NCBI GenBank assembly: GCA_964353405.1
Contig: CAYGWJ010000337.1
Coordinates: 1-52,182, forward strand
Reading direction: 5' to 3'
Length of the DNA stretch: 52,182 nucleotides
DNA from: an uncultured Anaerolineae bacterium
Lineage (GTDB): Bacteria > Chloroflexota > Anaerolineae > Fen-1058
The position numbers and the translations under genes are program-made. The notes under the pieces are model-generated. The model was not told where the DNA came from. It did no database searches and saw only the letters and a list, made by a program, of their open reading frames with translations. Shown here in pieces: positions 42,197 to 52,182 of the stretch (positions are counted from its first letter, which is position 1; each line of letters opens with the position of its first letter).

Positions 42197-42231
42197 TAAA
42201 AGCGGCGCGAGGTGATTTGCCTCGCGCCGCT
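42197..42231 (-). terminator. Intrinsic terminator after the A2M gene
   Basis: agcggcgcgagg-N7-cctcgcgccgct with an A-run on the left. Confidence 0.75.
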
Positions 42232-42278
42232 CCACTCTACTCTCCACGCTCAACGCTCTAGAGCGGTTTCCTGATCAG

Positions 42279-42377: not shown

Positions 42378-45300
42378 TCACGGCCTTGCTTGCACGCTAA
42401 CCAGTGACGGTGGCTGGAGGCCGGAGACGTCGGGATTGTAGTAATCGTACACCGACGACGGCGGCGCTTGCGCCTTGAGCGGGAACTTGGCCCGCAGCCG
42501 ATACCCAAAGCTGATCTTGTAATCCAGGTTCTCCATGTACAGGATAATCTGCGAACCGGTCAGCTCGTAGCGGCGCACCTTGGTGGCAAGCTGGCTGCTC
42601 TGGCTCACGAGCGCGTCCAGATCCTCGCTCAGCACGTCAAAGCCGGGCGGCACGCCCAGGTCAACGATGGCCCATTGCACCTTGGCGTTCTTGTTGAGCG
42701 TAATGTCCACCTTTGCCGTCATCTCGTCGCCCACGAACAAGTTGGCGTTGTCATACGTCACCTTGACCTCCACCGGCGGTTGAGCCGGAGCGGTCGCGAT
42801 TGACCACGGCACGTAAGCGGAGGTTGTGACCTGGTACATCAGGTTCTCGGTGTTCGAGCCGCTGACGCGCAGGCTCACGCGATTGTCGCCCGATTGCACG
42901 TCGTCAAAGGCGACGACGTGCACCACGTCGGCGTTCTCGGACGTGAGACGCACGGTCTGCGGCGTTCTCCCGTTGAGCGAGACGCTCACCGTCGCATCGG
43001 GCTGTGGCTTGTCTGTGCTCGACGCGGCCAGCAGCGCCTTGAGCGAAAGGATGGTGGCTTGCGTGGACTCCCACGTGCCAAAGCTGTCCTTGGAGCGCGT
43101 GAGGAAGCGCAGGCCCGCTTGAGCCAGGTCGTGGTTGCTCTTGCCGCTCACGAGCGCCTGCGTTGCCAGCGCAGACGTTTCAATGTCGGCCACGTTGCCC
43201 GAAGCGCCCGTGAACGATTGGGCGCGGGCCGTCCAGCGCGCGGTGTCTTGCTCGCGCGTCGCGAACGACGCCAGCTTGGTGAGCGCGGGTTGGGCCGTGC
43301 TGTCACTGGCCGCCGTCAGCGCGTTGGCGACGAGCGCCAGCGTGTACGCATCGTCGGCCTCGCTCCAACGCGAGCGCAGATACGAGAGCGCGCGCTGCGT
43401 GCCAGACTCGTTCCCATAGCCCGCTTCGATCAGCGCCCACGTGATATAGGCCGTGGTGGGCAGCTTGTCGTTCTTGAGCGTCGTCCAGCTTTCCATATAG
43501 CCCGCCGAGCCTTGGCCGCCCCACGATCCGTCGCCGCTTTGTTGACCCAGCAGCCAGCGCGCGGTGCGCTCGATCACGGCGCCATCCACCGCGTACACGT
43601 GCTGCATGTCCGAAAACTCCATCAGCCCATACGCGGTGTGCATCAACGTGGCGGGCGGATTGCCGAACAGACTGAACCCGCCGCCCTCGACTTCATACGT
43701 GAGCAGGCGTTGATAACCGGCCGCGATGTAGGTCTGCGCCTTCATCCGAACTTGCGGCGCGGCGCGGCCCGTGCGATTGAGATAGTCCAGGATCAACACA
43801 TCCGGGTAGAGCGTGGACAAAGTCTGCTCGAAGCAGCCATCGGGCATCCGCAGCAGCGCGTCCAGTCCTTCGACGATTTGCGCAGATGCGCCCGCATAGA
43901 CTTTGACTTGTATGCGCGCGGTTCCATTGATCGCTTGCGCTGGAACGACGACGGTCGCTTCGGTGTCCCCGGTCAACAGGTCGCTGGTCGAGCTACGCAC
44001 CTGCGTGCCGTTCGGCGCCACGCGCACATCTTTGGCGATGGCATCGGACATGGCCGTGCCTCGACCGGTGACGGTCATCCGGCCCAGTCCGAACTGCTTG
44101 ACGCGGATGCGAAAGTAGACCACGTCAATGTCGTTCGCGCCGATGGTGATCGTCTTGGTCTGGTCGTCCATCAGATCGAACCACTCGGCGGACGCAAGCT
44201 CCAACTTGACTTGCTGTGATTCAGGCAGATAGTTGTACACGGCCACAGGCACGGCCACTTCGTCATCCACCGTCAACTGCACGGGCAGGTCGAGGTCAAT
44301 AAAGAAATCCTGGAACACACGCAAGCCGTAGGTCTGTGAGCCGATCTGCCCGTTCTGCGTCGAAGCGAGCGCCGTGAGCCGCCAGGTAGTGATGCTATCG
44401 GCCAGTGGCACGTCGAGCTTTAAACGTCCGTCTTGGTCGGTGAGGGCTTCAGGATTCCAGTACATGGTTTCCGGGAAGAACTGACGCAAGCGCACCGGCT
44501 CGGCAGGCGCGGCTTGACCAGCGGGCTTGGCGACTTGAACTGTTGGCTGTGCTGCGGGCGCTTGGGTCGGCGCGGGTGCGCGGGTGGGCGCTGCTGCCGC
44601 GGGCGCACTGGTTGCAGCCGCCGGAATTTTGGGGTTTGCTTGTCTATCAAATGCCCCAGGCGTTGCTGCCGGGCTACAACCGGCCAGCCAACCGACCGGC
44701 CCGGCGTAGGCCACCGGATTGCCGAGCGTGCGCACAAACAGCGAGTGCGACCCGCTTAGCGCTGCTGTGATGACGATGGGCAGCCACAGGAAGCCGACGA
44801 GCGTAGAGGCCCACGCGGCCGGGCGTTTGCCTTCCAGGCGCAATCCTTGTCCAAAGATCACCAGCACCAAGATCATCCCGGCGAACGTCACGATCGTCCA
44901 TGTCAACGCGCGGCCTTTCAGGTCGCCGCCGTTTTCGGCCACGTAAGCCATCAGCACGCCGAGCAGCGTGTAGGCCATCGTGAGGCCGGTCATCAACTGC
45001 GCGCGCGGGTCCTCGTTGCGCCAGGCATAGATCGCAAAAGCAATCCACGCGGACAGCCAGACCAGCGCGGCCAGGATCACGGCCAGCGGGCCCAAGATCG
45101 CGTTGGCGCTCCACAGTCCAATGTACAGGCCGATGGCGCAGAATGGCGCGGCCAGGATGGCCAGGAGCGACCACTTGCCGACCGTGCGCATGGCTTTGCC
45201 CAGCACGCCGCTCGGGCGCAGTCCCCAGATGAGGACGATGAGCGCGAGGAGGGGCAGAATGATGAGCGTCTTGCTCAGCGTGCCGGAAAGCTGGATGAAA

Positions 45301-47588
45301 GCTTTTACCTTTTGACTCGCCAGGTCGGACAGCTTTTCAAGACGCGAACGGATGTCGAACGCCAGGTTGGTGACGGGGCTGCCCACCCATGAAGCCTTGG
45401 CGGCTTTATCCTGCGCCTGGATCACTTGCGGCGGCGTCGAGGCCGAAAGCAGCGTCGGCACGTCAAAACCTTTGACGTCCACCTTAGGTTCGAGCAATTC
45501 CTTTTCGAGCAAAAAGTAGAGCCTGGCAAAGCCGGGCGCCTGATCTTGAACGGCAAAGACAGATTCGTCCACGATGCCGATGCCTAGCGCGCTCTGAATC
45601 GGCTGGCCGCCCTGCAGCGTCGTCGTCATCGCCATGCGCGCCGTCTGGCCGGGGCGATACACGTCATGGTCGGCGCCAATGCCCACGTTCACTTCTTGCG
45701 CCTGATCTATCACAACCAGCCGCGTGTCACGCGCGAGGCCGGTACCCGGCATGACGACGTAAGCATGTAATTCGAGCGTGCCGAACATGGCCGTGTCCAG
45801 GTCAACTGCCAAGACCGCGCGACCATCTTTGATCGGCGCGCTGAACGCGGCGATGGTCTGTTGGTCTTTAACCAGATCAAGGTAGATTGCGCCGGACTGG
45901 ACGGTGGTCAACACTTCGGCCTTGAGCGTCTCGCCCACGCGATAGGCGGCGCGCTCGGTGCGGAGCAGCACTGTTCCGGCGCCAGCTTCGGTGTTGAGGT
46001 TGACGGTCTTGCGCGCCGATGCGCCGGTATTGTCCTGCGCGCTGATGTCGAGCGTCGTTCCTGTAGACGACGTGGGGACGAAGCGATATTCGGCCAGTCC
46101 ATATTCACCGGTCTGTAGGGGCGGGGTTACCCCGCCCCGAGCGTCATTAACGTTCACCGTCGCTTTGGCCGGGCGTCCATCGGGATATGAGACGAGGAGG
46201 TAGACAATGTTCTCCACACCCGGGCGCAGCGTGCCGCTTTCGGCAACAGCGTCAATCACCAGCGGGTCGCGCGCGATGGTGAGCACCTGGCTCACTTGTT
46301 CGCGGTGCTCGGCCTGATCAATGACCGCCACTTGCAGATCAAAGGTTGCTGTGCCCTTGTCGCCCGCGATGGCCAGCGGCGGCAGGTTGAACTCAAAGTG
46401 GAATTGTCCCTGGGCATTGGTCTGCCCAAAGAGCTCAACGGTCTGGCGGCGATTCGGGTCATATGTGTACCCATGCAGCTCAACGCGCGCTTCGGACGTG
46501 GGCTTGCCGAAAAAGTAGTCGGCCTGCACCTCACCTTTGACGCGCGCCCCGGGCGAATAGTACGGTCGGTCAGTCTCGATATTCACCTTGAACTTGGGCA
46601 ACACATACGGCTTGACCTCGACGCTGCGCTCGCTGGTCGTGTCGCCCAGCACGGCTTGCAGGTTGTACTTGCCGGTGATGAGCTGCGAGGCCAGTTGGAA
46701 ATCAGCGCTGGCGATGCCAAAGGCCGACGTGTTGACTTGTTGCCGGAAGACTTTGTCGCCGTTTGGATTGCTGGCGATGAACTCGATCCCCTGGCTGGCG
46801 ACGGCGTGATGGTCGAACGCATTCAGCGCCAGCGCGCGCAGGTGGATCATCTGGCCGGGCTGATAGATGGGCTTGTCGGTAGAGAGGTACAGCTTGTACG
46901 AGCGCTTGATCTGCACCGGGCGCTCGATATGATCTTGCCCCAGCGACGAACGGGTCCGCACGACGAGCGTGGCTTTGCCTTCCATGTCCGCCGGAATGTC
47001 AAGCGAGACGTTGGCCGAGCCGGTCGTGTCGGTCTTGCCGTTGTAGACGACGGGAGCTTGCGCACTTGTGAGTGTTACATTGACATCGGCTCCCGCGATG
47101 GGTTGACCGTCGCTCACCTTGCGCACGACGACACGCACACTGGCCGGGCTGCCGGGCGCGAATTGATCCTGGCCCATCACAATCGTCTCTTGATCGTCGG
47201 CGCGCGCGGTGAACGTCGTCGCGTTCCACGCGGCCACGCTAAAGATCGCCACGAGCAGCGCCAGCGTCGCCTGCGCCAGCGCATAGCGCCTTTTCACGAG
47301 CGGCTGGAACAGCTCGGCCAGGTTCACCAACAGCCCACGCAGCGAAGGGCGGTTTTGCTCGGCGCGGATGCGCTCGCGGGTGCGGACGCTGGCGGCATCG
47401 TTCAGCTTGACCTTCGACATGCGCGTCTTGAACGTGGTGTCCACATCGGCGTGAAACGATTGTGCGAGCGCCAGTTCCCCGCGGCACGACTCGCACTCGT
47501 CCAGGTGCGCCTTGACGCGCGAGGTCTCCTCCGGCGAAAGCGCGCCGTCGAGATAGGCAATGAGGTCTTGCGTCACATGACCCTTCAT
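42378..47588 (-). CDS. Zinc-finger anti-sigma (ZAS) / alpha-2-macroglobulin thioester protein fusion with internal 6-TM bundle
   Basis: YLDGALSPEE..HLDECESC (HxxxCxxC), then a TM. A2M motifs: TDKPIYQPGQ, YVLPKF, VDES, FFPET, DSITTW, FQDFFIDLDLP, MPDGCFEQT thioester, DLGVPPGF, VYDYYNP. Confidence 0.92.
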   Translation of the reverse strand: MKGHVTQDLIAYLDGALSPEETSRVKAHLDECESCRGELALAQSFHADVDTTFKTRMSKVKLNDAASVRTRERIRAEQNRPSLRGLLVNLAELFQPLVKRRYALAQATLALLVAIFSVAAWNATTFTARADDQETIVMGQDQFAPGSPASVRVVVRKVSDGQPIAGADVNVTLTSAQAPVVYNGKTDTTGSANVSLDIPADMEGKATLVVRTRSSLGQDHIERPVQIKRSYKLYLSTDKPIYQPGQMIHLRALALNAFDHHAVASQGIEFIASNPNGDKVFRQQVNTSAFGIASADFQLASQLITGKYNLQAVLGDTTSERSVEVKPYVLPKFKVNIETDRPYYSPGARVKGEVQADYFFGKPTSEARVELHGYTYDPNRRQTVELFGQTNAQGQFHFEFNLPPLAIAGDKGTATFDLQVAVIDQAEHREQVSQVLTIARDPLVIDAVAESGTLRPGVENIVYLLVSYPDGRPAKATVNVNDARGGVTPPLQTGEYGLAEYRFVPTSSTGTTLDISAQDNTGASARKTVNLNTEAGAGTVLLRTERAAYRVGETLKAEVLTTVQSGAIYLDLVKDQQTIAAFSAPIKDGRAVLAVDLDTAMFGTLELHAYVVMPGTGLARDTRLVVIDQAQEVNVGIGADHDVYRPGQTARMAMTTTLQGGQPIQSALGIGIVDESVFAVQDQAPGFARLYFLLEKELLEPKVDVKGFDVPTLLSASTPPQVIQAQDKAAKASWVGSPVTNLAFDIRSRLEKLSDLASQKVKAFIQLSGTLSKTLIILPLLALIVLIWGLRPSGVLGKAMRTVGKWSLLAILAAPFCAIGLYIGLWSANAILGPLAVILAALVWLSAWIAFAIYAWRNEDPRAQLMTGLTMAYTLLGVLMAYVAENGGDLKGRALTWTIVTFAGMILVLVIFGQGLRLEGKRPAAWASTLVGFLWLPIVITAALSGSHSLFVRTLGNPVAYAGPVGWLAGCSPAATPGAFDRQANPKIPAAATSAPAAAAPTRAPAPTQAPAAQPTVQVAKPAGQAAPAEPVRLRQFFPETMYWNPEALTDQDGRLKLDVPLADSITTWRLTALASTQNGQIGSQTYGLRVFQDFFIDLDLPVQLTVDDEVAVPVAVYNYLPESQQVKLELASAEWFDLMDDQTKTITIGANDIDVVYFRIRVKQFGLGRMTVTGRGTAMSDAIAKDVRVAPNGTQVRSSTSDLLTGDTEATVVVPAQAINGTARIQVKVYAGASAQIVEGLDALLRMPDGCFEQTLSTLYPDVLILDYLNRTGRAAPQVRMKAQTYIAAGYQRLLTYEVEGGGFSLFGNPPATLMHTAYGLMEFSDMQHVYAVDGAVIERTARWLLGQQSGDGSWGGQGSAGYMESWTTLKNDKLPTTAYITWALIEAGYGNESGTQRALSYLRSRWSEADDAYTLALVANALTAASDSTAQPALTKLASFATREQDTARWTARAQSFTGASGNVADIETSALATQALVSGKSNHDLAQAGLRFLTRSKDSFGTWESTQATILSLKALLAASSTDKPQPDATVSVSLNGRTPQTVRLTSENADVVHVVAFDDVQSGDNRVSLRVSGSNTENLMYQVTTSAYVPWSIATAPAQPPVEVKVTYDNANLFVGDEMTAKVDITLNKNAKVQWAIVDLGVPPGFDVLSEDLDALVSQSSQLATKVRRYELTGSQIILYMENLDYKISFGYRLRAKFPLKAQAPPSSVYDYYNPDVSGLQPPSLVSVQARP

Positions 47589-48196
47589 AGTTCCACCCCC
47601 GTACCCGTAGAGACGGCCCGCCGGGCCGTCTCTACCCGGGCCGTCTCTACCACAGGTGAGAGGCTTTTCTGCAAGGCCTGGTGCGCGTAAAACAGCCGCG
47701 ACTTGACCGTGCCCTGGCTGATGCTCAATGCCTCGGCGATCTCATCGTAGGCGAGGTCGGATAGATAACGCAACGCGATGATCTCTCGCTGCGCGTCGGG
47801 CAAGCCATCCACTGCCTGCCAGATCGCATCGCGCATCTCGCGCTTGAGCGCCGAGTGTTCGGGGTCGCCGTTGACGCCTGCGACCAGCTCGTCGGCCAGC
47901 TCGTCCCAGTCGGCAGAAGGCGGACGTTTGCGCCTGAAGCGGCTGCGGCAGCGGTTGACGGTGATGCGATACAGCCACGTCTCGAACCGCGCCGGGCCGT
48001 CTAGCTTGAAGCGCGGCAGGGCGTGAAGGAGATCGAGGAACGTCTCTTGCGTGGCTTCTTCGGCATCACCGCTGTTGCGGGTGACAAAGAACGCCACGCG
48101 ATAGACATAGTCCTTGTACCGCTCGAACAGCGCGTCGAACGCGCCGGGCTGGCCGCGTTGAAAGCGGCGGATAAGGTCATCGGTGGCAACAGGCAT
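47585..48196 (-). CDS. ECF RNA polymerase sigma factor
   Basis: AFDALFERY, DAEEATQETF, FETWLYRITVN, LPDAQREIIALRY..LAYDEIAEAL.ISQGTVKSRL; GGGGAGG RBS; ATGA overlap with the anti-sigma fusion. Confidence 0.96.
   Translation of the reverse strand: MPVATDDLIRRFQRGQPGAFDALFERYKDYVYRVAFFVTRNSGDAEEATQETFLDLLHALPRFKLDGPARFETWLYRITVNRCRSRFRRKRPPSADWDELADELVAGVNGDPEHSALKREMRDAIWQAVDGLPDAQREIIALRYLSDLAYDEIAEALSISQGTVKSRLFYAHQALQKSLSPVVETARVETARRAVSTGTGVEL
47607..47650. repeat. GTAG-type REP palindrome plus half copy inside the sigma factor 3' end
   Basis: gtagagacggcccg-c-cgggccgtctctac perfect 14-bp IR, then ccgggccgtctctac; encodes VETARVETARRAVST. Confidence 0.85.
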
Positions 48197-48232
48197 GGCC
48201 GCCTCCCCTCTGTGAGTCTGGGTTGCTGCTAA

Positions 48233-48262
48233 TTACACGCAGCAACGGGGGTAAATGTTCAA
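48233..48262 (-). promoter_or_regulatory. Putative ECF promoter driving the sigma/anti-sigma-A2M operon
   Basis: Minus strand TTGAACA-tttacccccgttg-CTGCGTGTAA. Confidence 0.8.
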
Positions 48263-48354
48263 TTTCAGTATATGCCCACTTTTGGGGATTGACAAGCCCC
48301 TTAATTCGGAGTAAAACCATTACGGAGCTAAGTGGGCAACCTGGCCCGGCGCGG

Positions 48355-48384
48355 TTGAACAAAATCGCCCCGACCTGCGTGTAA
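48355..48384 (+). promoter_or_regulatory. Putative ECF promoter driving the vWA lipoprotein
   Basis: TTGAACA-aaatcgccccgac-CTGCGTGTAA; boxes and spacing identical to 48233-48262. Confidence 0.8.
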
Positions 48385-48445
48385 CAAACAGATTCAACGA
48401 ACAAGCCGGTCACGCCGAACCGGCCCAGTATGCAGGAGGAAAAAA

Positions 48446-50119
48446 ATGAAGACCCGCTTGATGCTTAATATCTTATTCGCCGTCATATCTGTTGCCGTGT
48501 TGATTCTCCCTGCCTGTGCGCCTGCGGCAACGCCCGCGCCGGTTCAGGTGCAGAGCAAGCCCGGTGCCACGTCAGCACCCGCACAAGCTCCCAGAGCCGC
48601 CCAGCCGACCCAGGCGCCCGCCGCGCCCGGTGCGTTCGCTGCGACGCCTATCCCCGTCGCCGTGGTGCGCCGGCCAGGCTCCGGTGGACAGGTGATCGTG
48701 ACGCCCTCGTATCAAACGCCCAACCCCGACTTGCCGCCCGAGTCCTGGCCGGCCGACATGTTCTTCAGGCAGTATGGCGTCAACCCGCTGATGGACACCC
48801 AGGAGGAGCACCTCTCTACCTTCGCGATGGATGTGGACACGGCCTCGTACACCTTGATGCGCAAGTACATCACCGATGGCCGCCTGCCGCCGCCCGAATC
48901 CGTCCGCGTGGAAGAGTACGTCAACTACTTTAACTATGACTATCCTGGGCCGGAAACGGGTGCGTTCGCGATTCATCTCGAAGGCGCTCCATCGCCTTTC
49001 CGCGAGGGATACTATGTACTGCGTGTCGGCCTGCAAGGCAAGCGCATTGACGCTTCCCAGCGCAAGGACGCCGTGCTGACTTTCCTGATTGACGTGTCCG
49101 GTTCGATGGGCGACAACAACAAGCTGGAGACGGTCAAGCAGGCATTGGGCATGTTGGTCAATGAACTGCGCCCGACTGATATGGTTGGCATTGTCGTCTT
49201 TACCACGCAGGCGCGTGAGGTGCTACAGCCTACGCCCGCTTCGGAAAAAAGCCGCATCATGTCCGTCATCAATAGCCTGCGACCAGAGAATTCTACCAAC
49301 GTGCAAGATGGATTGACGCTGGCATACAAGATGGCCTCGCGCGCCTATCGCAAGGGCTTGATCAACCACGTGGTTCTGTGCTCCGATGGCGTCGCCAACG
49401 TCGCTGGCACGAGTGCGGATACGATTCTCGCGCAGGCCAAGGAATATGCCACACGCGACATTACCCTTTCGACCGTTGGCGTAGGTATGGGGAATTACAA
49501 CGATGTGATCCTGGAGCAATTGGCTGACAAAGGCAATGGCAACTATTCCTACGTGGACACACTCGAACAGGCGCACCGCGTGTTCGTGGAGAACTTGACC
49601 GGCACCCTGCAAGTCATCGCCAAGGATGCCAAAGTGCAGGTGGATTTCAATCCCGCCGTCGTCAGCCGCTTCCGCCTGATCGGATACGAGAACCGCGCGA
49701 TTGAGAATAAGGACTTTCGCAACGACACGGTGGACGCGGGCGAGGTCGGCGCAGGGCACAACGTTACCGCTCTGTACGAGGTCAAGTTCAAGGATGAGGT
49801 TCCGTCGAGCCAGCAGGGCAACGCGCTGATCGTGTACGTGCGGTATCAGGATATCGAGACCAGCCAGGTGCGTGAGATCAACCAGACATTTGGTCGCACG
49901 CAATTCGCCGGCTCGTTCGATGTGACTTCGCCGCGCTTCAAGCTGGCCGCCGCCGTGGCCGAATATGCCGAGATTCTGCGCAGCAGCTACTGGGCCAGAG
50001 GTTCGAGCCTGGAGAGTGTTCAAGGTCTGGCTCAGAGAGTGCGGCCGGCTTTGCCAAACGACCAGGACGTGGCCGAGTTCGCGCAACTCGTCAGCCGCGC
50101 CAGCCAGTTGCGCAAATAA
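48446..50119 (+). CDS. YfbK-like vWA lipoprotein (vWF_A + VWA + DUF3520)
   Basis: Lipobox LPAC; STFAMDVDTASY, VRVEEYVNYF.YDY, MIDAS DVSGSM, SDGVAN, IAKDAKVQVDFNP, LIGYENR, DAGEVGAGH.VTALYE. Confidence 0.95.
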   Translation: MKTRLMLNILFAVISVAVLILPACAPAATPAPVQVQSKPGATSAPAQAPRAAQPTQAPAAPGAFAATPIPVAVVRRPGSGGQVIVTPSYQTPNPDLPPESWPADMFFRQYGVNPLMDTQEEHLSTFAMDVDTASYTLMRKYITDGRLPPPESVRVEEYVNYFNYDYPGPETGAFAIHLEGAPSPFREGYYVLRVGLQGKRIDASQRKDAVLTFLIDVSGSMGDNNKLETVKQALGMLVNELRPTDMVGIVVFTTQAREVLQPTPASEKSRIMSVINSLRPENSTNVQDGLTLAYKMASRAYRKGLINHVVLCSDGVANVAGTSADTILAQAKEYATRDITLSTVGVGMGNYNDVILEQLADKGNGNYSYVDTLEQAHRVFVENLTGTLQVIAKDAKVQVDFNPAVVSRFRLIGYENRAIENKDFRNDTVDAGEVGAGHNVTALYEVKFKDEVPSSQQGNALIVYVRYQDIETSQVREINQTFGRTQFAGSFDVTSPRFKLAAAVAEYAEILRSSYWARGSSLESVQGLAQRVRPALPNDQDVAEFAQLVSRASQLRK

Positions 50120-50270: not shown

Positions 50271-51908
50271 CTAGTAATCCATCCCGCCACCGGGCGGCAT
50301 CTGAGGCATTTCCTTCTTCTCAGGAATGTCGGTGATGAGCGCTTCGGTGGTGAGAATCATGGCGGCGATGGACGCGGCGTTCTGCACGGCGCTGCGCGTG
50401 ACCTTGGCCGGGTCAATGATGCCGCGCTTGACCAGGTCGGTGTATTCCTGCGCCATCACATCGTAGCCAATGTTCTTGTTCTTTTCTTCCTTCTGCCTGC
50501 TACGAATGTTCTCGAGGACGACGGCGCCGTCCATGCCGGCGTTCTCGACGATGCCCTTGAGCGGGGCTTCCAGCGCGCGGCGCACGATGTTGACGCCCGT
50601 CTGCTCGTCATCGTATTCCATCTTGACTTTATCGAGCACGATAGCCGCGTTGATGAGCGCCACGCCGCCGCCGACCACGATGCCTTCCTCAACTGCGGCG
50701 CGCGTCGCGGACAGCGCGTCTTCCACGCGGTGCTTCTTTTCCTTCAGCTCGACCTCGGTGCCCGCGCCCACGCGGACGATGGCGACGCCACCCGCCAGCT
50801 TGGCCAGCCGCTCTTGCAGCTTTTCCTTGTCATAGTCGCTGGTGGTGTTTTCCATCTCAGCCTTGATCTGCTCGATGCGGCCCTTGATGGCGGAAACCTT
50901 GCCAGCGCCGTCGATAATCGTCGTGTTATCCTTGTCGGCCACGACTTTGCCGGCGTGGCCCAGGTCTTCGAGCGTCACGGATTCGAGCTTGCGGCCCAGT
51001 TCTTCGGTGATGACCGTGCCGCCGGTCAGGACGGCAATGTCTTCCAGCATGGCCTTGCGGCGATCACCAAAGCCCGGCGCCTTGACGGCCAGCAGGTTGA
51101 ACATACCGCGCAGCTTGTTCAGCACGAGCGTCGCCAGAGCTTCGCCGTCCAGGTCTTCGGCGATGACGACGCAATCGCGCTTGCCCTTCTGGACGAGCTT
51201 TTCCAAGATCGGCACAATATCGCTGGCAGCCGAAATCTTTTTGTCGTGAATGAGGATGTAAGGCTCTTCGAGGACGGCTTCCATCGTCTCGGGGCTGGTG
51301 ACGAAATACGGGCTGATATAGCCGCGGTCAAACTGCATACCCTCGACGTATTCCTTCTCGAAGGCGAGGCCCTTGCTCTCTTCCACGGTGATGACGCCGT
51401 CCTTGCCAACCTTGTCCATCACTTCGGCGATGAGGTCGCCGATTTCACTGTCGGCGGCGGAGATGGAGGCGACGTGCGCGATGTCATTCTTGTCGTTGAC
51501 GGAGACGGATTGCTTCTTGAGCGAAGCCACTACCGCTTCGGTCGCGGCTTCGATGCCGTGCTTGATCAGCATCGGGTTCGCGCCCGCGGCGACCATCTTC
51601 AAGCCTTCGTTCACGATGGTCTGCGCCAGAACGGTCGCAGTCGTGGTGCCGTCACCGGCGACGTCGTTGGTCTTGGTGGCGGCTTCCTTGAGAAGCTGCG
51701 CGCCCATATTCTCGTACGGGTCCTTGAGTTCGATTTCCTTCGCAACGGTGACGCCGTCGTGCGTGACGGTGGGGGCGCCGAATTTCTTGTCGAGTGCAAC
51801 GTTGCGGCCTTTGGGGCCAAGCGTCGTGGCCACCGCAAAGGCCAGGGTGTCAATACCGGTCTTTAGTTTTCTTCGAGCTTCTTCGCTGAAAACGAGTTGC
51901 TTTGCCAT
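50271..51908 (-). CDS. groEL: Chaperonin GroEL
   Basis: [47 protein letters not shown]. Confidence 0.99.
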
Positions 51909-51926: not shown

Positions 51927-52182
51927 TTACTTTACCACGATTGCAAGAATGTCGCTCTCTTTGAGGATGAGGACCTTCTTGTCATCGAGTTTGATTTCGG
52001 TGCCCGCATACTTGGCATACAGGACCGAGTCACCGAGCTTGACATCCATCGGGACGATCTTGCCGTCGTCATCGCGGCGGCCTGGGCCCACGGCGATAAT
52101 GGTGCCTTCCTGCGGCTTTTCCTTGGCCGTTTCGGGCAAAATAATGCCGCTGGCAGTGCGCTCCTCTTTTTCGAGCGGTTCA
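51927..52182 (-). CDS. groES: Co-chaperonin GroES (5' truncated)
   Basis: [40 protein letters not shown]. Confidence 0.98.

Follow-up and report, generated by a model that had tools for sequence, protein, structure and literature searches.

A Motif Shared by Two Divergent Genes

The window (the whole stretch of 52,182 nucleotides that was analysed) contains a gene for an ECF sigma factor and a gene for a vWA protein that point away from each other, and the intergenic region between them (48197-48445) carries the same pair of boxes on both strands. This arrangement raises the question of whether the boxes are promoters and, if they are, which sigma factor reads them. As described below, comparisons between genomes make it quite probable that both are separate ECF-type promoters and that the ECF sigma factor encoded at 47585-48196 reads them. 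To our knowledge, few Anaerolineae have been cultured and hardly any of their promoters are known. YGAAC-N16-GCRTGTAA would be a comparison-backed promoter motif for an uncharacterised ECF sigma lineage of the Anaerolineae (Chloroflexota). The features of the locus are the following.

42199..42233, minus strand: terminator-like hairpin, about 145 nt past the anti-sigma stop
42378..47588, minus strand: anti-sigma gene (1736 aa), N-terminal zf-HC2 domain fused to a full alpha-2-macroglobulin (Pfam)
47585..48196, minus strand: ECF sigma factor gene (203 aa); Pfam Sigma70_r2, Sigma70_r4_2 and Sigma70_ECF, NCBIfam TIGR02937 above cut-off
48233..48262, minus strand: predicted ECF promoter for autoregulation of the sigma/anti-sigma operon; -35 TTGAACA at 48262-48256, -10 CTGCGTGTAA at 48242-48233
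48355..48384, plus strand: predicted ECF promoter with the vWA lipoprotein gene as its target; -35 TTGAACA at 48355-48361, -10 CTGCGTGTAA at 48375-48384
48446..50119, plus strand: gene for a secreted or lipoprotein-like vWA protein (557 aa); Pfam vWF_A, VWA and YfbK_C

A pattern search finds TTGAACA-N13-CTGCGTGTAA exactly twice in the window, at 48355-48384 on the plus strand and at 48233-48262 on the minus strand. All of the specified bases (17/17) are identical in the two copies and the spacing is equal, but the spacers, AAATCGCCCCGAC in the plus-strand copy and TTTACCCCCGTTG in the minus-strand copy, are unlike. The preliminary description of this DNA had reported such twin divergent boxes, with equal spacing and unlike spacers on opposite strands, and the search recovers them as described. 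Its distances are also right when measured against the mapped ATGs: from the end of the -10 box it is 37 bp to the ATG of the sigma gene (48196) and 62 bp to that of the vWA gene (48446).

When up to three mismatches are allowed, there are still just two matches in the window, and none of 100 shuffled sequences reached two. A genome-wide scan, which the preliminary description had proposed, gives the same picture: the 15-base core is exact at these two sites only in the 5,577,249-base assembly (G000; 5.58 Mb in 499 contigs, 91% complete). With two mismatches, the core has 20 further matches in this genome versus eight in the reversed control. Relaxed patterns (GAAC-N17-CGTGT, TGAAC-N16-18-GCGT and others), which were used to look for a wider regulon in the same genome, gave no excess over reversed controls. 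A relaxed pattern has three extra exact matches there (contigs C94, C107 and C420), and all three fall within coding frames or at their ends. On C94 a small ORF (L096:1135-1446, minus strand) follows a frame in which the last codons happen to resemble the motif; we take the ORF to be DUF497/BrnT-like, of the toxin-antitoxin type, and the preceding frame to be DUF1330-like.

These numbers bear on another explanation of the boxes, by which they would be a repeat that arose by chance or would mark the ends of a small mobile element as its terminal inverted repeats. The boxes do form an inverted repeat that flanks about 92 nt, and one contig of sequencing run X3 (see the last section) skips exactly the stretch between them. 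However, only 0.10 matches per window are expected by chance, which is the mean of the shuffled sequences, and the genome has two copies only, whereas terminal inverted repeats would need many copies paired at a fixed distance. Furthermore, the boxes have been conserved in five families, in contrast to the DNA that separates them. We consider the probability of this explanation to be close to negligible.

Contigs of four DNA runs were aligned on 47800-48800 to look for variation. Among the differences listed, those in the intergenic region are at 48329, 48348, 48350, 48353, 48354 and 48411, with indels at 48326 and 48440, and no listed difference falls inside either of the 30-nt motifs, in an alignment that has 97 more differences and thin cover.

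The Sigma Factor and Its Anti-Sigma Factor

The sigma factor has regions 2 and 4 only, is about 200 amino acids long and is followed directly by the gene for a zf-HC2 protein, all of which are traits of an ECF sigma factor. Its closest solved chains are Escherichia coli sigma-E (1or7), an AlgU-type sigma (6in7) and Bacillus subtilis SigW (5wuq); these three are all autoregulated envelope-stress sigma factors. Among the generic NCBIfam and Pfam models that were applied, all of the equivalog NCBIfam models are below their cut-offs, and so by the equivalog models the protein is in no named orthologous family.

The start of the anti-sigma gene overlaps the sigma stop by 4 nt. The encoded protein begins with the zf-HC2 domain (residues 5-36, E = 4.9e-11), which is followed by a hydrophobic segment (103-121), by MG2, MG3 and MG4, by the bait-region domain (A2M_BRD), by six more hydrophobic segments between 769 and 945 and then by the A2M, TED_complement and A2M_recep (receptor-binding) domains; the TED domain has a CFEQ thioester motif at 1252. 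The same layout is found in the anti-sigma factors of two other genomes (G010 and G004), and the gene after the sigma gene is a zf-HC2/macroglobulin fusion in each of the four genomes that were checked (G010, G004, G045 and G060). The gene identities given in the preliminary description (ECF sigma, zf-HC2 anti-sigma and vWA) are those assigned by Pfam, which adds the fusion of the anti-sigma factor to alpha-2-macroglobulin. We found no description of an anti-sigma/alpha-2-macroglobulin fusion in the literature that was searched. Because a terminator-like hairpin follows the anti-sigma gene, the operon probably consists of two genes.

Conservation Upstream of the Sigma Gene

When 61 related genomes and a sample of 401 genomes of the class were searched at the protein level, orthologs of the sigma factor with 56-85% identity turned up in 20 genomes, including the genome of the window; the next-best matches have at most 43% identity. 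These genomes belong to five Anaerolineae families: three are from f1, one each from f25, f15 and f3, and 14 from f40. One genome (G014) was counted in the ortholog tallies only. GAAC-N16-GCRTGTAA is present upstream of the sigma gene, on the sigma strand, in 20/20 genomes; 18 of the sites are exact, and those in G182 and G202 each differ from it at one base. The 20 genomes contribute 18 distinct 28-mers. The motif is 16-153 nt before the aligned sigma start and the spacing between the boxes is constant in all 20.

Metagenome contigs provided 22 more loci with an ortholog of the sigma factor (54-98% identity). The core YGAAC-N16-GCRTGTAA is present in 21 of the 22 (19 exact and two with one mismatch), in a collection of related genomes and contigs that are not all independent of one another; certain contigs repeat a genome's 28-mer. 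The 22nd contig (L159) has TGCATGTAAC at base 1, that is, it is cut inside the -10 box. Conservation in orthologous loci had been set beforehand as a test of the motif, and the motif passed it among the genomes and among the contigs.

Pooling the sites yields 59 distinct 46-mers, including one false positive from a coding region. All 59 have GAAC, with T or C before it, and GCRTGTAA begins exactly 16 nt after GAAC in every one; the boxes are fixed and the spacers are variable, A/T-rich at first and then C-rich. In the -10 box the first G is present in 58/59 sites and the C in 59/59, the R is A in 35 and G in 24, and the remaining bases are T, G, T (53/59), A and A. In ECF promoters the -10 element is expected to be CGT or a close variant located about 16-17 nt from the AAC. 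The sites described here have AAC in the -35 box and CGT or its variant at a fixed distance, and at the orthologous sigma loci they lie upstream of the sigma gene. The preliminary description had named CGT as the common -10 element of ECF promoters. CGT is present in the genome of the window, but most orthologs have CAT, and the conserved form is GCRTGTAA. A conserved CA(G) occurs about 5 nt after the TAA in the pooled sites, and as a sign of a putative transcription start it would be only a hint.

We also considered a sigma-70 reading of the boxes and rejected it. In this reading TTGAAC and GTGTAA would be separated by an 18-nt spacer, and GTGTAA matches TATAAT at only 1/6 positions; in addition, the -35 sequence is GCGAAC in family f40.

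The Copy Upstream of the vWA Gene

The vWA protein has a hydrophobic segment at residues 5-23 followed by a Cys. Among four ortholog genomes tested, only G010 has an ortholog of this protein (61-65% identity), and there it is on a different contig from the sigma gene; a GAF/Hpt/P2 CheA-like gene instead of the vWA gene is located upstream of the G010 sigma gene. The G010 vWA gene nevertheless has the motif, TTGAACAAAATCGCCCCAGGCTGCATGTAA (GAACAAAATCGCCCCAGGCTGCATGTAA), 56 nt before its start. This site resembles the one in the window even in most of the spacer, and the flanks are unalignable.

The five closest metagenome relatives (L154-L158, 85-97% identity in the sigma factor) all have a second, divergent copy of the motif. 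The distance between the two copies varies greatly: it is 98 nt in L154, 440 nt in L155, 91 nt in L156, 1358 nt in L157 and 1193 nt in L158. The two longest distances contain a gene, one for a response regulator/histidine kinase in L157 and one for a CDP-alcohol phosphatidyltransferase in L158. The gene behind the second copy encodes the same vWA protein in L154, L155 and L157 (98, 87 and 83% identity, respectively) and a different VWA_4 lipoprotein with the same signal peptide in L156; the L158 contig ends 86 nt past the second motif. When the sequences of the window, L154 and L156 are aligned, both motifs are kept and the intervening DNA has diverged. Each copy therefore stays with its own gene, as would be expected of two independent promoters but not of paired operators or of mobile-element ends.

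The VWA_4-type lipoprotein, which has the signal peptide MKTRSMLN..., is encoded by L156:47-1306 (minus strand) and also by G001:C421 (L239:1109-2371) and G002:C1 (L238), with the promoter kept. It seems that in these relatives the gene body was exchanged behind a fixed promoter and leader.

Thirteen other Chloroflexota genomes encode homologs of the vWA protein (43-56% identity). The sigma ortholog is absent from all of these genomes and the motif from 12 of them, which indicates that the motif follows the sigma factor and not the vWA family. The vWA homolog loci were also examined as a possible source of the motif, and 0/42 had an exact match. One of them (L112) has a one-mismatch variant, GCGTCTAA, in the promoter position, in a genome with no sigma ortholog, and a one-mismatch match about 480 nt upstream of another vWA homolog (L135) is probably due to chance. 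On its other side, the vWA gene of the window is convergent with groEL (50271-51908, minus strand), and the end of groES (51927-52181, minus strand) lies at the end of the window.

A Hairpin at the Predicted Sigma-Side Promoter

The sigma-side copy of the motif has a second kind of symmetry.

48222..48246, no strand assigned: 8-bp perfect palindrome, GTTGCTGC / GCAGCAAC, with the sigma-side -10 box in the loop

Hairpins with the -10 box in the loop occur at many of the orthologous sigma promoters, including those of the close relatives L155-L157, and the arms differ between lineages; examples are GTTGCTGC/GCAGCAAC, GCCTGC/GCAGGC, TACCGG/CCGGTA and TTGCCA/TGGCAA. The hairpins at the sigma promoters have a mean of -7.3 kcal/mol versus -5.5 +/- 0.39 for permuted flanks, and 0/300 permutations reached this value, although kinship between the sequences inflates the difference. 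The mean for target promoters is -4.3 (n = 24), weaker than a mean of -6.8 (n = 35). Presentation of the -10 box in a hairpin may be a further layer of control.

These hairpins, together with the fact that the two copies in the window make an inverted repeat, would suit another explanation, namely that the boxes are not promoters but either a protein operator for a dimeric regulator or a structural element in a leader RNA or in the DNA. Several observations do not agree with it. Most orthologous loci have a single copy, which is always on the strand of the downstream gene, and where there are two copies, anything between 91 and 1358 nt separates them. At many target-side sites the hairpin is slight or absent; the vWA site of the window, for instance, has -0.2 kcal/mol. 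A search of 47900-48700 against Rfam gave no family at E values up to 1. Finally, the bipartite form, the invariant 16-nt gap and the YGAAC -35 box are those of an ECF promoter. We consider the operator or structural explanation to be very improbable.

Which Sigma Factor Reads the Motif?

The exact pattern GAACW-N15-GCRTGTAA was searched for genome-wide, with the reversed pattern as a control. The 20 genomes with the sigma factor have 42 exact matches versus four in the control; 20 related genomes in which no sigma ortholog was detected have nine matches versus 11 in the control. The 42 matches belong to three classes.

Class 1: sigma-proximal, 17 matches
Class 2: upstream of and co-directional with a gene, 17 matches
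Class 3: within a coding frame, at its end, or ambiguous, 8 matches, including all three of the extra matches in the genome of the window

The gene-proximal targets are the following.

vWA: two genomes (G000, the genome of the window, and G010)
Second macroglobulin: G010
META/DUF4377: six genomes, all of one genus
PA14 + SH3_3: three genomes
SH3_3: two genomes
DUF4349: one genome
ORFs without a Pfam match: two genomes

The preliminary description had placed the sigma, anti-sigma and vWA genes in one regulon. This is supported in the genome of the window and its closest relatives, but elsewhere other secreted proteins take the place of the vWA protein. The motif would define a very small regulon of secreted proteins.

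The second macroglobulin deserves a separate description. An alpha-2-macroglobulin-like gene without an anti-sigma domain, the product of which is about 50% identical to the fused protein, is present in G010 (C309, L110), G002 (L245), G003 (C81, L246) and G001 (C61, L244). Upstream of it the motif is exact in G010 and has one mismatch in G002 and G003, and in G001 the gap is 12 nt instead of 16. The assembled part of the genome of the window contains no VWA_4 gene and no close paralog of the macroglobulin.

Three of the genomes named above are more difficult to explain, because a protein search did not find a sigma ortholog in G001, G002 or G003. In G001 and G002, which are in the same genus, a VWA_4 lipoprotein gene is preceded by the motif at a distance of 60-70 nt; these two sites belong to the nine matches counted where no ortholog was detected, and they are not noise. 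In G003 the ortholog of the anti-sigma factor (80% identity) begins at base 2 of a contig, from residue 94, and so the sigma gene was lost to a contig break. The missing sigma gene may likewise be an assembly gap in G001 (590 contigs) and G002 (82% complete), and it is also possible that these genomes have a second sigma factor with the same specificity.

The motif-bearing targets of G001 and G002 would also suit the explanation that the boxes are real ECF-type promoters read by a paralogous ECF sigma factor, with the adjacent sigma gene as a target of that factor and not an autoregulator. Candidates for such a role are plentiful, as these genomes have many ECF paralogs (four to 42 first-look candidates per genome). 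In addition, one paralog locus (L019, 39% identity) has GAAC-N16-GCGTATAA in the promoter position, which is what would be expected of a related ECF sigma factor. However, the exact motif was found in 0/25 loci of ECF sigma factors that are 36-43% identical to this one, and only two of the 25 have it with one mismatch. The motif is present at every sigma ortholog examined, the enrichment described above is confined to genomes with an ortholog, and the case of G003 is accounted for by a contig break. Reading by a paralog is improbable in our judgment, though less so than the explanations discussed in the previous sections. We infer that the sigma factor encoded next to the boxes is the one that reads them.

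The Predicted Circuit and Known Systems

The predicted circuit is as follows. Region 4 of the sigma factor would contact YGAAC as the -35 element and region 2 would contact GCRTGTAA as the -10 element, 16 nt apart. The minus-strand copy would drive the sigma and anti-sigma genes, which is positive autoregulation, and the plus-strand copy would drive the vWA lipoprotein gene. In the resting state the anti-sigma factor in the membrane would hold the sigma factor by means of its zf-HC2 domain. A signal at the envelope would free the sigma factor, which would then activate its own operon together with a very small regulon; in the genome of the window this regulon would consist of the vWA gene alone, beside the sigma factor's own operon.

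The logic of this circuit is textbook ECF autoregulation. According to Casas-Pastor et al. (2021; PMC7826278), ECF sigma factors usually autoregulate and the members of an ECF group share a promoter motif. As in the promoters of E. coli sigma-E and B. subtilis SigW, the motif is bipartite with AAC in the -35 box and a fixed spacer, the -10 box is short with G/C followed by a T-rich part, the promoter is directly upstream of a sigma/anti-sigma operon, and there are a few extra target promoters for envelope proteins. Unlike in the sigma-E and SigW systems, the -10 box has eight bases, GCRTGTAA, in which R is more often A than G, and the regulon is tiny and changes between lineages.

The vWA gene recalls a different group. 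In ECF289 the anti-sigma factor consists of DUF3520 fused to a von Willebrand domain, again according to the same paper (PMC7826278), and so a vWA protein with DUF3520 (now YfbK_C) is genetically tied to an ECF sigma factor there as it is here. However, the vWA/YfbK_C protein of the window has a lipoprotein-type signal peptide and is encoded divergently behind a predicted promoter of its own, and it is the zf-HC2/alpha-2-macroglobulin protein that takes the place of the anti-sigma factor. The possibility that the vWA protein is an anti-sigma factor of the ECF289 type was considered and rejected: Pfam gives vWF_A, VWA and YfbK_C and no anti-sigma domain, and the protein has a signal peptide and a Cys. 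Some vWA loci of other phyla have an ECF sigma gene about 0.8-1.6 kb upstream of a vWA/YfbK_C homolog and co-directional with it; they are L123 and L124 (Thermoanaerobaculia/Acidobacteriota) and L143 and L146 (Clostridia). These four loci recall the arrangement of ECF289 as the same paper (PMC7826278) presents it.

The anti-sigma factor resembles RsrA, ChrR and RsiW, the zf-HC2 class I anti-sigma factors, in that the zf-HC2 domain is N-terminal and is followed by a transmembrane segment, and in that its gene is directly after the sigma gene with an overlapping stop and start. Unlike these proteins, it carries a complete thioester alpha-2-macroglobulin on the outside, with another six hydrophobic segments midway along it. 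This fusion is the more unusual part of the system.

One reading would make the anti-sigma factor itself the sensor. The outside part would act as a protease trap, as a thioester alpha-2-macroglobulin does; attack by a foreign protease would change the shape of this domain or mark it for degradation, and the freed sigma factor would raise its own operon together with lineage-variable secreted proteins of the trap or adhesion type (the vWA protein, the second macroglobulin, META and PA14/SH3). Such a protease-alarm circuit is possible but on balance doubtful. We did not find a signal input of this kind described for ECF systems in the literature that was searched. In any case, a new question could arise on the input side, where the anti-sigma factor carries a complete thioester alpha-2-macroglobulin, and the sigma factor, its promoter and the anti-sigma factor would form an orthogonal set for possible heterologous testing.

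Other Elements Between the Two Predicted Promoters

The preliminary description had also pointed to a TTGACA at 48289 as a possible source of basal transcription. TTGACA is present on the plus strand at 48289-48294, but its sole plus-strand -10 partner is TAAAAC, and the site is better read on the minus strand.

48267..48295, minus strand: sigma-70-like promoter candidate TTGTCA-N17-TATACT, 10/12 matches; one found versus 0.3 in shuffled sequences

This candidate overlaps the TTGACA, is located upstream of the ECF promoter and is aimed at the sigma gene. L154 and L155 have kept it, but L156 has not. The candidate is plausible as a basal promoter of the sigma gene, not of the vWA gene.

A 9-nt perfect inverted repeat, TGCCCACTT / AAGTGGGCA, is present at 48273-48281 and 48330-48338, with 48 nt between the arms. 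It brackets the sigma-70-like -35 element and lies between both of the ECF promoters. In run X3, one contig (depth 4.67, alignment threshold of 85% likeness) joins 48263 to 48351 and so skips the 87 nt that separate the two -35 boxes; this contig may represent a strain with a different or shorter stretch between the two promoters.
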